From the NCBI GenBank assembly GCA_951406725.2, contig OX597824.1, positions 7,006,001-7,070,000 of the forward strand: a stretch of DNA of 64,000 nt, given 5' to 3'. A model generated the notes under the pieces. The model was not told where the DNA came from, did not search any database, and saw only the letters and a program-made list of their open reading frames with translations. The position numbers and the translations under genes are program-made. Of this stretch, positions 12,247 through 38,016 are shown piece by piece; position 1 is the first letter of the stretch; every line of letters starts with the position of its first letter. Source of the stretch: Octopus vulgaris (Eukaryota).

Positions 12247-12902
12247 ATTGTCATATTGATTATGGATTTCTATATTTTCGAGATGCTGTCTTACTGAATC
12301 TGAATGTGTGTGTGTGTGTGTGTGCATTCTTGCTTATAGATATATGTGTGAGAGAAAGAGATGTGGAAATCGTTGAGTTGGCTGTTCCGTATGGCTCTAA
12401 AAAAGGATTTGGGCATCTGGACAAATGCCCTGCCCGTCAGTCAAGTACACTAAACTATATTTGTTGCGACAAACAAAATCGTTGTCAGTGCGTGTCGGCA
12501 CGCATGGAGCGGTTTCCAATTCACAAACCGACCAAAGGGTATCCTGATGGTCTCTGGTTGCACCACCGACTCGTTAACTCTTCTACTGTGCCAGGTGGTC
12601 ACCGAGCAGGTGCTCGGTCAGTTATAATGTCCGGTTTTAAGTGGACGAGAGAGGTACGCGAAATGAAGTGGAACGTTTAGTTCAACACGACTCCTGCAGC
12701 GGGAATCGAACGCACGGCCCTATGAACGAGAGCCCAGTTGCCCGCCTTCTCACATCGATCGAAGACCATACACATACACCTTATATGAGAACAGATCTAA
12801 AACTATCCACAAGTTTTGTGGAAGTTAGTAAAGTTACCAAACTAATCAATAACTTACATTATTTACATTTGATGGATATTTGTCCCCATTTTGTTTGTTG
12901 TT

Positions 12903-12948
12903 AACACAATATTTCGGCTGACATACCCTCCAGCCTTCATCAGGTGCG
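12903..12948 (-). ncRNA. Minimal type I hammerhead ribozyme motif (mirror copy)
   Basis: Minus strand reads cgcac-CTGATGA-a-ggctg-gagggtatgt-cagcc-GAAA-t-ATT-gtgtt; stem III palindrome AUAU. Confidence 0.7.
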
Positions 12949-13006
12949 TGGGGGAAATTTCGAACCCGGGTTCTCATTCCTAAGGTATTTTTCGATGTTG
13001 TTGTTG

Positions 13007-13048
<42 letters not shown>

Positions 13049-13186
13049 TCACTGCTTGGAATCGAACTTGGAATCTTGGGGTTTAGTAGCTCACGCTCTT
13101 AACCAGTATGCCATATGCCCGTGGACATGCCCTCGCCCGTGAGAGGATCCATTACAACCATTGGAAAAAACATCAACTAAACCCAC

Positions 13187-13259
13187 GGGCATATGGCGTA
13201 GTGGTTAAGAGCGCGGGCTACAAACCCCAAAATTCCGAGTTCGATTCCAGGCAGTGACC
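13187..13259 (+). pseudogene. tRNA-derived Pol III head (SINE head)
   Basis: A box TGGCGTAGTGG at 13194-13204 and B box GAGTTCGATTCC at 13237-13248; mirror copy on the minus strand at ~13046-13120. Confidence 0.8.
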
Positions 13260-13264
13260 TGAAC

Positions 13265-13310
<46 letters not shown>

Positions 13311-13372
13311 GTAATAACAATAACATCGAAAAATACGTTAGGAATGAGAACCCAGGTTCGATATTTCCCCAA

Positions 13373-13418
13373 GACACCTGATGAAAGCTGGAGGGTATAT
13401 CAGCCGAAACGTTGTGTT
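13373..13418 (+). ncRNA. Minimal type I hammerhead ribozyme motif
   Basis: gacac-CTGATGA-aa-gctg-gagggtatat-cagc-c-GAAA-c-GTT-gtgtt: stem I gacac/gtgtt, stem II gctg/cagc, loopless palindromic stem III (ACGU). Confidence 0.75.
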
Positions 13419-13720
13419 AACAACAAACAAGATGAGGAGAAATATCCGTCAAGTGTAAATAATGTACATAATTCCTCATCCCTTAAATATAGAACTGTGT
13501 AATCAATAACTCTGAGACTTTATATTAAGCTTTTACTCCTTTACATGATAAAAACAAAAACATTAAGAAGGGAAAACCATTACGAAGGTTTGCATTTGAC
13601 GAATTATTATAATTTCGAGTCAGTCATTTTGCCTTCAATATGGAAGACAAGCGTCAGACAACCAAAGACAACCTGGTTTATTTCTATTGTTTTCTTTTAA
13701 TTCGCAATATTTCCTAAATT

Positions 13721-14135
13721 GGGCCACGGGAGTGGTTGTGTGGTAAGTCGCTTGCTTACGAACCACATGGTTTCGGGTTCAGTCCCGCTGCGTGGCACTT
13801 TGGGCAAGTGTCTTCTACTATAGCCTCGGGCCGACCAAAGCCTCGTGAGTGGATTTGGTAGACGGAAACTGAAAGAAATCCGTGGTATATATGTATGTGT
13901 GTGTATATGTTTGTGTGTCTGTGTTTGTCCCCCCACCAACATCGCTTGACAACCGATGCTGCTGTGTTTACGTCCCCGTAACTTAGCGGTTCGGCAAAAG
14001 GAACCGATAGAATAAGTACTAGGCGTACGAAGAATAAGTCCTGGGGGTCGATTTGCTCAATCGACTAAAGGTGGTGCTCCAGCATGGCCACAGTCACATA
14101 ACTGAAACAAGTAAAAGAGTAAAGAGTAAAAGAGA
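13721..14135 (+). mobile_element. SINE family A, full length, CpG-rich copy
   Basis: Colinear with 4366-4800 and 63347-63775. Confidence 0.9.
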
Positions 14136-23592: not shown

Positions 23593-24727
23593 TATATATT
23601 TACTTAGCACTGTCATCAATGACCTAAATATCCTGCAGTACTGAACTGTTGTTTGTATAGAGTAAGACGATATATTCGATTAGCATGGATAAAAAATACA
23701 GAACAAAAGACACATATTTAACTAAACCAATTAATAAAGAATGGCAAATAGCATTTAGCCAGAGAGCGTGTTTACTGTCAATTAATATCAATAGGAATTT
23801 AAATCAATTAGTCCTGATCAGTTCAATTATCATTTGCTCCTAATTCCTGCAGAGAGCCCAACAAACAGAAAACTGCAACTATTTCCAAAATATTACCAGG
23901 GCTTAATCCAATTGACATACATTTCTGTTGATGAATAATCTCTTTCTTTCCAGCTGTTGATTATTAGTTTAGCCAAGCATGAATCGGTATATAAGATGTG
24001 GCTGAATCTATTGTGAGGGTCATGACACCACCCATCTTCAACAAGGCAGGGCAAATTGTGTCCCTCTGTCTAATGGCCTCAATGAAAGAAGTTGTGTGGT
24101 GGACAAGACTGAAAGGGTTGAGGAAAGACACCTTCCTCTTCAGTTAAGTCCTAACTTTTTTTAAGGTCCACTTGGAAAGTAAATTGAGGGCGGAGATGGA
24201 AGTGCTACCCTGCAGTGAATTTGTGCAAAGATGGGTAAGAGTAACATAAATGGTTAGGGTGAATAGCTCTACAGAAGTATGCACCAATAGATTGGCGAGC
24301 ATGAGAGGGGGTTCATACATTTGGTGTTCAAGGGAATCCTGAATCTGTGGGGTTTCTTCATTGGCCCTTGTTAGAAAAACTGCATCATTCATCTTATCAC
24401 ATACTTTGTACACTACGAATACTTTTATTGCATTTCACCGTCATTTTCATTTGTTTTCTGACACCCTTTATGTGAATCCCCACAGGAATTGTCGTCTGTC
24501 CTTGACTTGCCCTCTCCCCATCTATGACCCTATGACTAAAAAAAGAAATTGTTATTAATATTAATATTATTATTATTATTATTATTATTATTACTGTTAT
24601 TATTGGGGTGATTCAAACTCCAACCTCTGACCACAGATGTGTTGCTTTTCACTTTGACTTATTCTACCTACTGTTGTGGACTTTGCTCCTCGGAGCTTGC
24701 GGGGATTCTCCCCACATCTACTGAAGT

Positions 24728-31824: not shown

Positions 31825-32194
31825 GTGGAGGTGCAATGGCCCATTGGTTAGGGCAGCGGACTCGCGGTCAGAGGATCGCGGTTTCGATTCCCAGACTGGG
31901 CGTTGTGTGTGTTTATTGAGCGAAAACATCTAAAAGCTCCACGAGGCTCCAGCAGGGGTTGGTGGCGACCCCTGTTGTACTCTTTCACTCCAACCTTCTC
32001 TCACTCTTTCTTCCTGTTTCTTGTCCCCGACTTCCTATGCAACCGCTGAGCCTGGATGTGCATTCATCCATCCGTTGATGCTCTCGGTGTCGGGGGGTTG
32101 ACCTGCTTTCTCTTCTGCAGGTCTTACGAATAGCAAAGGACCACGTTTCGGACTTCTCCCACTGCTCTGGGACGAAGACCGCTTCACTCAACAG
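31825..32194 (+). mobile_element. SINE family D (tRNA-derived) with a 14-bp TSD
   Basis: A box tggcccattgg, B box ggtttcgattcc; caacagcaagaaca is duplicated at 31811-31824 and 32195-32208. Confidence 0.88.
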
Positions 32195-32785: not shown

Positions 32786-33029
32786 TATTATTATTTAAAG
32801 ATCACAATACATGTATTAAAGTGCTACTAATAGTTTCATATGTTGAGAAGTACTCAGACATATTCTTCAGGTGCAAACTACATATCATAATGCGTTTCTT
32901 CTATTTATTCCATTTCTTTAGTTTGTTATGATACGTGGTTTGTACCTGAAGAATATGTTTGAGTTCTCTCAACATATGAAAATACTAGTAGCACTTTACT
33001 ACATGTACTGTCACCTTTAAGTAATAATA
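32786..33029. mobile_element. Fold-back element with two divergent hammerhead-like motifs
   Basis: Arms 32786-32890 and 32926-33029; each reads CTGAAGA-atatgt(t/c)tgag..ctcaacatat-GAAA..ta-gtagcac outward from the centre. Confidence 0.75.
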
Positions 33030-36251: not shown

Positions 36252-36852
36252 AAATTTTCTGGAATGTGATATGGGAAGTTTACCAGTCTCACCAAAACCT
36301 CCATCAACCTGAATAAAATACACAGAAGCCAAAAATTCAAGGCCATGGGTAAACCAATCAGGTGAGAATTGAAACACCGACAGCGGCACTGTTTCTCGTC
36401 TACTTAAGAAGACCAGCAAACTGTTTGGTTGCGGAAATGTAACATTGAAAGCCAACAGTGCGTCACTCGAGGAACATCAAAGAGAAGTGATACAGCATCA
36501 ATTAATATTAATCTCAATGAAAGAGATTCTGATGAAACGTAAAGTGGTTTTGAATATTTAGCATTTCTAATATTCAAAACAAAAATTCTTCTTCTTTCTC
36601 TCCCTCCCACCTCTTCCTTGGAAGATACTGCTCTCAAACAACAACAACCACTACTACTACTACTACTATCACCACCACCCATGGAAGATTGGATTAAACA
36701 CTTATTGGACATTTAAATCCATGAATAAAAAGAACAAGGTAACAGAAAATATATGCATGAATTTATCTGGATTATTTCTCATATTGGATTATAAATTCTT
36801 TTTCTGTTTTACTTTTTATTCCAAAGAATAACGGACCAACCTGCTCAGCATA

Positions 36853-38016
36853 ATGTTCTTAAATGATTCCTACGACAACATGGAATACGCAGCCAATATG
36901 TCACTGTGGGAGAATGTCTCCTCAATAGCCACAAGTCTGACTGACGTTACGTCAAACAACAGCACCTTTGAAGATCCAGAACGCAGTGGGTTTATGAAAT
37001 TCTCTGCTGTGTATGAGAAAGCCCATGGTTATATTAGTGTCACTGTTTGTATATTTGGAGTAATTTCAAACATATTGAATATTTTTGTGTTGACAAGAAA
37101 ACACATGATTTCTCCTACTAATTATATTTTAACAGCTCTAGCAATTTTTGATATGTTCACGATGACCACATATATCCCATATGCTACATACCTTTATATT
37201 TTTGCTTCTCCTAGCCAAAGTTCCTATCATCCATATGCATGGGTGCTATTCATTGTTATTCACAACAACTTTATCATAACTTGCCATACCATAGCCCTTT
37301 GGTTAACTGTCTCGTTGGCAGTTTTCCGATATATCTTTGTCTGTCATCACACACAAGCACCGACGCTCTGCAACTTAGCCCGCTCGAAACTCACAGTTTT
37401 GATAACAGTTGGAATAAACATCTTGTTTTGTATACCTAACTATGCACAATACGTCGTCAGCGAGATGCCACCAGACGGCGACCATACTTCATACTGGATA
37501 TCTCAACGGGATCTTCCGCCTATCTTTTTCACTATAACATATTGGCTTTTCGGTGTCTTGATGAAGGTAGCCCCGTGCACGTTTTTGACAATCCTCAGTG
37601 CTATCTTAATACATGCAATGCATAAAGCAGAAAAACGAAAAGCTCGTCTCCATTCACAAGGCTCCCGGGCTACACAAGAATCTTCTAGCACAGAAAGCAA
37701 CAGAACAACAAAGATGCTTATAGCGGTGGTCTTATCAGTGGTTATTACTGAGTTGCCACAAGGAATACTTGCTCTGATAAGTGGCATCAACCAAGATTTT
37801 TTCTCAAATGTTTATGTGCCTTTAGGAGATGTAATGGATATTCTGGTACTAATTAACAGTGCAATTAATTTTATTCTTTACTGTATTATGAGTCAGGCTT
37901 TCCGAAAAACATTCAGGACTCACATCTTTAACGTTTGTGTAAATAATGTTCGGAATCGAACTAACAAGAATGGCGTAACGTATAGTTCAATTCAAACAGA
38001 AGTGACACAAGTATAG
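36853..38016 (+). CDS. Rhodopsin-class neuropeptide GPCR, myosuppressin/DMSR-1/myomodulin-receptor-like (FMRFamide/sex-peptide receptor group), intronless CDS, 387 aa
   Basis: Seven hydrophobic segments; N-terminal N-glycosylation sequons (NDS, NMS, NVS, NNS, NST); group motifs HGYISVTVCIFG..N..NI.VLTRK.M.SPTN.ILT.LA..D, WLTV.LAVFRY, RTTKML.AV....ITELPQGIL and NSAINFILYC.MS..FR.TF. Confidence 0.95.
   Translation: MFLNDSYDNMEYAANMSLWENVSSIATSLTDVTSNNSTFEDPERSGFMKFSAVYEKAHGYISVTVCIFGVISNILNIFVLTRKHMISPTNYILTALAIFDMFTMTTYIPYATYLYIFASPSQSSYHPYAWVLFIVIHNNFIITCHTIALWLTVSLAVFRYIFVCHHTQAPTLCNLARSKLTVLITVGINILFCIPNYAQYVVSEMPPDGDHTSYWISQRDLPPIFFTITYWLFGVLMKVAPCTFLTILSAILIHAMHKAEKRKARLHSQGSRATQESSSTESNRTTKMLIAVVLSVVITELPQGILALISGINQDFFSNVYVPLGDVMDILVLINSAINFILYCIMSQAFRKTFRTHIFNVCVNNVRNRTNKNGVTYSSIQTEVTQV

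Follow-up and report, generated by a model that had tools for sequence, protein, structure and literature searches.

The 64,000-nucleotide stretch of Octopus vulgaris DNA analyzed here (assembly GCA_951406725.2, contig OX597824.1, positions 7,006,001 to 7,070,000, forward strand; hereafter the window, whose own numbering is used throughout) carries an inverted pair of short repeat copies, in each of which a tRNA-like head is followed by an (AAT)n linker and a 3' part that bears a minimal hammerhead motif. The locus represents a single copy, old and decayed, of a repeat that is very abundant in Octopus. We consider it likely that it arose as an insertion of a non-coding element with a Penelope-type end, an element that RNA polymerase III (Pol III) would transcribe and Penelope enzymes would copy. 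The chances appear evenly balanced that the family goes further and is a true Penelope-dependent short interspersed element (SINE), with a tRNA-derived Pol III promoter seated just within the 3' end of a Penelope element of the octopus; on the same even terms, its short transcript would have out-replicated the parent about 200 times over, reaching a copy number in the tens of thousands or higher. Judged by its anatomy, the element resembles a Penelope pseudo-long terminal repeat (pLTR) at its ends and a SINE at its start. What appears to be new is the combination, across a whole family, of a head of Pol III type with an end of Penelope type; taken alone, neither the palindromic layout nor the hammerhead is novel.

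The left arm (12855-13124, minus strand) and the right arm (13183-13466, plus strand) are separated by a spacer of 58 bp (Table 1), and the first-pass annotation of this DNA was correct in giving each arm a head, an (AAT)n linker, and a minimal hammerhead. The arms are 85.6% identical over 285 columns with the microsatellite included and about 90% alike without it; with the microsatellite left out, 72 of 80 head columns match (7 mismatches and 1 gap), as do 130 of 145 body columns. Among the 22 mismatches outside the microsatellite, 16 are transitions and 8 are of the CpG type. The perfect 12-bp repeat at 12843-12854 and 13500-13511, reported earlier and confirmed here, encloses a unit of 645 bp; a 12-mer match within 3 bp was obtained in 13 of 20,000 random window pairs 645 bp apart. 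This one duplication surrounds the whole unit, none being noted within it, which supports the earlier proposal of a single integration event. The description as one palindromic unit holds for the inverted arms but not for their ends, as the right arm has 32 to 33 extra bases (13467-13499) ahead of the duplication, a feature that had gone unremarked. Neither arm contains a run of four T residues, and the window holds no copies of the element besides the two arms. No open reading frame (ORF) of at least 120 amino acids is present at the locus, which therefore does not carry the reverse transcriptase (RT) and GIY-YIG ORF of an autonomous Penelope-like element.

The family to which the arms belong was followed in contigs from 4 of 24 listed public sequencing runs, placed on 12700-13660 at 80% likeness. 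By our guess, runs X1, X6, and X10 are DNA from three organisms and run X15 is RNA; 37,314, 40,398, 27,719, and 1,528 contigs were placed in the four runs, and they show neither transcript starts nor strand. Most are 90 to 95% alike to these arms. Depth is about 15 to 65 in the flanks and 1e5 to 1e7 in the arms, with ratios to flank depth of 4e4 to 9e4 for the head and 1e5 to 3e5 for the hammerhead, sums that are no copy number and read only as very abundant. The strongest loose ends among the 24 listed (there are 1,524 more) lie behind 13497-98 in all four runs, with 524, 436, 415, and 31 contigs. A second 3' end falls behind 13466 (80 contigs in X10), and its left-arm counterpart lies before 12854 in three runs (158, 118, and 120 contigs, a mixed set that includes copies continuing into the tail). 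The two 3' ends are 32 nt apart, 53 and 85 nt beyond the predicted ribozyme cut, and the stretch between them stands on one arm only; Penelope-like insertions likewise have two 3' ends 30 to 40 nt apart and a tail on one arm, and the 32-nt separation is the Penelope tail signature. The short 3' end at 13466 is near the center of an 8-base palindrome (13462-13469), where the last 8 bases appear to be repeated ahead of the tail in some contigs of the family (joint 12854 to 13459; loose end 13472). As for the flanks of the locus itself, one X1 contig (record 8) continues from the tail into the right flank, and a single-depth X10 contig carries the left flank, with 8 substitutions and 1 gap in 165 bases, into the left-arm end. 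The insertion therefore likely predates the split of the X10 organism from that of the window.

The family has a sharp 5' boundary at the head. Loose ends fall before 13182 in three runs (152, 141, and 99 contigs), depth steps up about 200- to 270-fold from spacer to head within about 50 bp, and most headed copies begin at 13182-13194, 0 to 12 nt ahead of the A box. Fifteen of 408 joints were listed, most of them recurring in two or three runs. Inverted-to-direct joints make up 11 of the 15, in keeping with Penelope-like insertions, where an inverted, usually 5'-truncated copy sits at the 5' end. Nine connect an inverted copy to 13182-13194; in eight of these the inverted partner is cut within the body at varied sites, and one is head to head (13120 to 13188, with a single base between, recurring in three runs). 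The others are two joints of an inverted to a truncated direct copy, two internal deletions, and two arm switches. Internal-deletion forms join the head start to body or tail (13209 to 13363 or 13387, 13212 to 13343, and 13219 to 13462), and some of them have lost the B box or the hammerhead. Since head-to-body joints occur across these deletions, the fusion of head and body is family-wide.

These ends and joints can be set beside published Penelope insertions. The typical insertion has pLTRs with an adjacent inverted pLTR, most often head to head, within a duplication of 8 to 10 bp, and one of the inverted repeats carries a tail of 31 bp (PMC3846280). The same layout is described for Naiads (PMC8557442), and pairs of minimal hammerhead ribozymes (min-HHRs) 100 to 700 bp apart on opposite strands had already been noted (PMC4209133). 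An element from anole nicks AT-rich DNA on both strands in vitro and initiates reverse transcription internally at two positions, of which the first lies 111 to 118 nt into its ORF, the tail being the stretch between the two starts (PMC11167929). The one-sided tail and the variably cut inverted partners match this signature, so that the palindrome is the expected product of a Penelope-type insertion and no mobile double-headed unit. The first-pass annotation had taken the double-headed palindrome as the unit that moves, and this is not supported, given that the inverted partner is variably cut and a head-to-head arrangement is found in one of the nine listed head-abutting joints; its assignment to the non-autonomous Penelope-type elements is supported.

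The heads were called tRNA-like, with A and B boxes, on both sides. In a scan with strict box patterns, the right head (13194 and 13239) gave the only strict A-box and B-box pair on either strand of the window. The call stands for the right head, which defines the 5' end of the family at the place expected for a Pol III start, but not for the left, whose damaged A box fails the strict scan. The element thus has A and B boxes at tRNA spacing at its 5' end, as tRNA-derived SINEs do. Its 3' end is not of the LINE (long interspersed element) type, with LINE tail, poly-A, or simple repeat, as the (AAT)n is internal and the two end sites are fixed and non-repetitive. The commonest SINE in the window has a head with which that of the element can be aligned over its full length, though weakly. 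That SINE, a tRNA-headed family of about 400 bp, has about 12 copies (4366, 13724, 20604, 22283, 42100, 54233, 55350, 55480, 58684, 63346, and others), and a second tRNA-headed family occurs at 31825 and 49930. Ohshima and Okada reportedly described three octopus tRNA-derived SINE families in 1994. The SINE copies of the window share nothing with the body or 3' end of the element.

Each arm contains the parts of a minimal type I hammerhead, namely CUGAUGA, one extra A, a stem II of 5 to 6 bp, GAA, a 4-nt palindrome as stem III, U17, and a stem I of 4 to 5 bp. The traits listed for Penelope min-HHRs (PMC4209133) are present, with an extra base after the core, a G-C first pair of stem II (absent in the right arm), and a palindromic 15.2-16.2. 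The GC stem II claimed for both arms is intact in the left but has lost its first pair in the right, where A occupies 13386, a site at which 93 to 98% of family depth is G; judged from its sequence, the right hammerhead is probably impaired. Rfam models, suggested earlier as a check, gave no hammerhead match on 12300-14100 or on the left hammerhead. The hammerhead pattern had no matches in metagenome, prokaryote-genome, or viral contigs, as expected for animal DNA, and free folding, which is uninformative for minimal motifs, yielded neither hammerhead nor cloverleaf (z of -0.40 to 0.64).

Stem III is ACGU in the right arm, the form of the family, and AUAU in the left, a difference that had been attributed to either compensation or double CpG decay. 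Decay by G-to-A change at 13411 in stem III affects 7 to 25% of family depth, C-to-T change at 13405 in the first stem II pair 13 to 39%, and the core G12 site 6 to 20%; CpG sites elsewhere show 8 to 50% in the head and 11 to 20% in the body. The AUAU form accounts for at most 0.6 to 1.2% of all stem III depth, an estimate from contigs placed on the left arm, the right-arm partner site 13410 lying outside the entries listed (48 further entries). That share is no higher than independent CpG decay predicts and so fits decay without selection. The change is best read as CpG decay, which strikes the catalytic core as well. Compensation is rejected, as decay rates are similar in core, head, and body and a heterodimer of right and left hammerheads in trans would have a C-A mismatch in stem III. 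The better conservation anticipated for the core nucleotides does not show at its CpG positions, which decay as fast as non-core ones across the family. The suggestion of small circular RNAs is likewise not supported at this locus. It would need two tandem hammerheads on the same strand; here they lie on opposite strands, no single transcript carries both in sense, and with no dimer in cis a circular RNA is unlikely. The hammerhead likely came along with the Penelope end as a passenger and requires a partner molecule or protein. In the anole element, the hammerhead is protein-assisted and dispensable for insertion (PMC11167929).

The spacer and the body offer two leads toward a longer, coding form. 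The right part of the spacer, about 13137-13182, is itself repeated, at about 190 to 380 times flank depth, and is about 200 to 270 times rarer than the head in the DNA runs. In X10 and X15 it is covered from near 13137 onward and stays clear of the left arm, and 13125-13136 lies outside the covered stretch. The right part is best taken as what precedes the head in a longer form of lower abundance, the junction holding about 12 filler bases. Its frame stays open into the head, as far as a stop at 13222, which is present in 94 to 99% of family depth. This suggested that a Penelope ORF might finish here, and the encoded peptide may resemble the last helix of a GIY-YIG domain, a likeness to which protein searches lent no support, finding no relative. 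The other lead is a frame of 52 codons from an ATG at 13344 through hammerhead and tail; 37 of 5000 shuffles gave such a frame. The left arm and a copy from O. bimaculoides keep the frame open as well, and the two 3' ends lie at +123 and +155 nt from the ATG. It matches a 51-residue predicted protein of Octopus bimaculoides over the whole length, and its similarity to a predicted protein of Octopus sinensis covers the first 36 residues at 83%. Matches in these two annotations place the family in at least two Octopus species. In O. sinensis, the first 36 residues of LOC115224785 isoform X2, a predicted cysteine-rich membrane protein, come from a family copy, and the start of this isoform is predicted to be an exonised copy spanning the hammerhead. 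One supplementary file of PMC8557442 contains none of three short motifs taken from the element. Penelope-like elements are reported to make up 6.83% of the O. vulgaris assembly, whose repeat library counts 172 Penelope and 1279 unclassified SINE families (PMC13282606).

Several results weigh against a Pol III-headed, Penelope-mobilized family. ARAGORN found no tRNA genes in the window, and Rfam returned no relevant family on 12300-14100 or on the right head. Because neither Rfam nor ARAGORN recognizes them, the hammerhead and tRNA labels rest on motif anatomy. The two heads are the best non-member matches of a profile from 8 local SINE heads, with weak scores (E of 0.15 for the left and 0.79 for the right); none of 1000 shuffles run against the same profile beat the left head and one beat the right. 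Protein searches for an autonomous partner (word-based, phmmer, Atlas, and Pfam) gave only two small annotated proteins from family copies. As to the contigs, depth sums speak to abundance and not to copy number, joint sides are 18 to 43 letters long at 80% likeness so that single joints may be wrong, and (AAT)n bins were skipped, leaving direct head-to-body continuity unread. In the four runs the unit is not spanned in full by any contig, and the 15 joints listed out of 408 include none from an empty site.

The same evidence bears on other explanations. The arms could be plain 5'-truncated pLTRs of an autonomous Penelope, the A- and B-like boxes having been captured or arisen by chance at the border of ORF end and untranslated region. 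We think this improbable, although it deserves consideration, as we do its corollary that a hairpin or an RT template-switch hot spot set the sharp 5' boundary with no Pol III start. It would suit the failure of Rfam and ARAGORN to detect a tRNA, the palindromes on record at pLTR 5' ends (PMC3846280), and a repeated spacer that runs open into the head and meets its stop in most copies. However, a step of 200- to 270-fold in about 50 bp, 0 to 12 nt before the only strict box pair, is hard to obtain from truncation alone, and the spacer peptide is without a relative. Far less probable is that the 645-bp double-headed palindrome is itself mobile, as a DNA element resembling miniature inverted-repeat transposable elements (MITEs) or as one fold-back RNA. 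Among the ends and joints listed, symmetric terminal inverted repeats do not recur as a whole unit; ends are unequal, with a tail on one side only, and inner junctions vary. Such an element could explain the long terminal inverted arms within one duplication, the repeated spacer, and the single head-to-head joint that recurs in three runs, but not the headless, variably cut inverted partner in 8 of the 9 listed head-abutting joints, nor a spacer so much rarer than the head, whose repetition stops near 13137 in X10 and X15, short of the left arm.

Equally remote is an ordinary LINE-mobilized tRNA SINE that fused to a Penelope end at this locus only and then underwent inverted duplication, or two independent insertions that happen to adjoin. 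Head and (AAT)n together do have the look of a simple SINE that is complete, the head can be aligned over its full length with that of the common SINE of the window, and the AAT bins are unread; yet head-to-body and inverted-body-to-head joints with many breakpoints occur in two or three runs, and the one duplication surrounds the whole unit with none noted inside. Slightest of all is the probability that the element is a retrozyme spreading through self-cleaved circular RNA, with the stem III palindrome under selection. In its favor, the two forms of stem III are each self-complementary, the genome may hold tandem copies at other loci, and animal retrozymes have been proposed to derive from Penelope (bioRxiv 10.64898/2026.07.22.740005). 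Against this, the locus has no head-to-tail repeat and its hammerheads are on opposite strands, the scarcity of AUAU is within independent CpG decay, core CpG positions are not spared, and the ends of the family miss the cut site.

Penelope-type insertion of a headed element would proceed in a few steps. Pol III would start near 13182-13194 and give an RNA of about 320 nt or longer. By analogy with the anole Penelope, an RT-GIY-YIG protein would bind its end and nick AT-rich DNA on both strands, and reverse transcription would begin at two internal sites that correspond to the two 3' ends. One nick would prime the right arm from the long end, synthesis extending 46 to 58 nt beyond the head into upstream sequence; the other would prime the left arm from the short end, and repair would join the copies head to head and leave the 12-bp duplication. 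The arms would then decay independently, largely at CpG sites, a decay that is itself observed.

Table 1. Features of the inverted insertion, in window coordinates
Feature	Position	Strand	Remark
Target-site duplication, left copy (AT-rich, 12 bp)	12843..12854		Adjoins the short 3' end of the family
Left arm, inverted element copy finishing at the short 3' end, without tail	12855..13124	-	
Minimal type I hammerhead, left arm	12903..12947	-	AUAU stem III; stem II intact; stem I of 4 bp; predicted cut after 12908
(AAT)n/(AAC)n linker, left arm	12997..13044 (approximate limits)	-	
tRNA-like head, left arm	13045..13124	-	A box damaged
Likely junction filler	13125..13136		Partly echoes the end of the inverted head
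Repeated sequence upstream of head	13137..13182	+	Possibly 3' part of a longer, perhaps autonomous, form
tRNA-like head, right arm	13183..13261	+	A box at 13194-13204 and B box at 13239-13247; 5' ends of the family cluster at 13182-13194
(AAT)n linker, right arm	13262..13324	+	Internal, no 3' tail
52-codon frame from ATG through hammerhead and tail	13344..13499	+	Candidate N-terminus of the ORF of a partner
Minimal type I hammerhead, right arm	13373..13418	+	ACGU stem III; first stem II pair lost; predicted cut after 13413
One-sided 32-nt tail	13467..13498	+	Between the two 3' ends of the family
Target-site duplication, right copy	13500..13511		One unassigned base at 13499 before it

SINEs are said to be mobilized by LINEs (PMC10886601). 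If the reading is true, an abundant family that pairs a Pol III head with Penelope ends would introduce a third kind of SINE helper, and its thousands of junctions between a fixed 5' end of the template and an inverted partner would bear on how Penelope makes inverted insertions and uses two starts. A true Penelope-dependent SINE, the Penelope equivalent of SINEs that depend on LINEs, would also seed the octopus genome with ready-made inverted pairs, long double-stranded RNA substrates for A-to-I editing. Folding prediction for an RNA that reads through the locus gives 255 pairs between the two arms. In the RNA-like run X15, T>C reaches 23% and 29% at 13364 and 13443, against at most 1.1% in the three DNA-like runs, and 13 such places are found in X15 against 4 in each DNA run. 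This hints at A-to-I editing of antisense family transcripts, the DNA runs being unmatched to the animal of X15.

Elsewhere in the window, 32786-33029 holds a second inverted pair from an unrelated family, with arms of about 105 bp that are 35 bp apart and 83% identical in mean column identity. Both arms have a hammerhead-like core with a long stem II. A clear target duplication was not found, and the pair is likely another Penelope-type inverted insertion. An uninterrupted frame of 394 codons at 36832-38016 on the plus strand encodes a rhodopsin-type G protein-coupled receptor (Pfam 7TM_GPCR_Srw, E of 4.9e-37; 7tm_1, E of 7.1e-16). Further repeat families lie near 16-469, 16762, 21690, 46900, and 56270 and near 24727, 27110, 39245, and 62120.

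Literature searches, made outside Repbase, Dfam, subscription papers, and bioRxiv supplements, found no description of this family or of any tRNA-headed Penelope-mobilized element. Cephalopod repeat surveys give class totals only in their available parts (PMC13282606, PMC8967140, PMC6962438), and a consensus is probably present, unlabelled, in automated octopus libraries. The element is neither an autonomous Penelope, having no ORF, nor a LINE-type SINE, having the wrong 3' end, nor at this locus a retrozyme, having no tandem. It is most readily compared with endonuclease-bearing (EN+) Penelope insertions and their pLTRs (Pen2a of A. vaga, PMC3846280; PAc/Poseidon of anole, PMC11167929; Naiads, PMC8557442; min-HHRs, PMC4209133), which share the minimal hammerhead near the 3' end, two 3' ends 30 to 40 nt apart, the head-to-head inverted partner, the short AT-rich duplication, and an ORF start inside the repeat. 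Unlike them, the octopus element has no RT or endonuclease. The Pen2a pLTR promoter is of the TATA/initiator (Inr) type (PMC3846280), whereas the octopus family has an A/B-box head followed by (AAT)n, and the first RT start of the anole element at +111-118 of its ORF (PMC11167929) compares with +123 and +155 from the ATG here. Short non-autonomous Penelope-like elements, of the MRC1 type in Chlamydomonas (PMC8557442) and in Heliconius (PMC6685494), are also non-coding and share their 3' end with autonomous families, but a tRNA-like head goes unmentioned in the available parts of those two papers.

Other systems resemble the element in its promoter or in its ribozyme. SM-alpha and Sj-alpha of Schistosoma combine a Pol III-type promoter with a type I hammerhead in a short non-coding retroposon; going by their description, they differ in being tandem and ribozyme-processed, with the promoter left at the 3' end (PMC6765202, PMC8490949), while the octopus element is non-tandem, has its head at the 5' end, and finishes at Penelope RT starts instead of cut sites. 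Animal non-LTR retrozymes are small and non-coding, carry a type I hammerhead, and are proposed to depend on Penelope (PMC7229834; bioRxiv 10.64898/2026.07.22.740005), yet they form head-to-tail repeats and circular RNA and no tRNA-like head is mentioned in what is available of these sources, whereas the octopus locus is inverted. The TRIMp3 elements Cassandra, Helenus, and Ajax (PMC10886601) are non-autonomous, have a Pol III promoter derived from a small RNA, and use a helper other than LINEs. They are LTR elements with a primer-binding site (PBS), a polypurine tract (PPT), and duplications of 4 to 5 bp, and the octopus family would be their Penelope counterpart.
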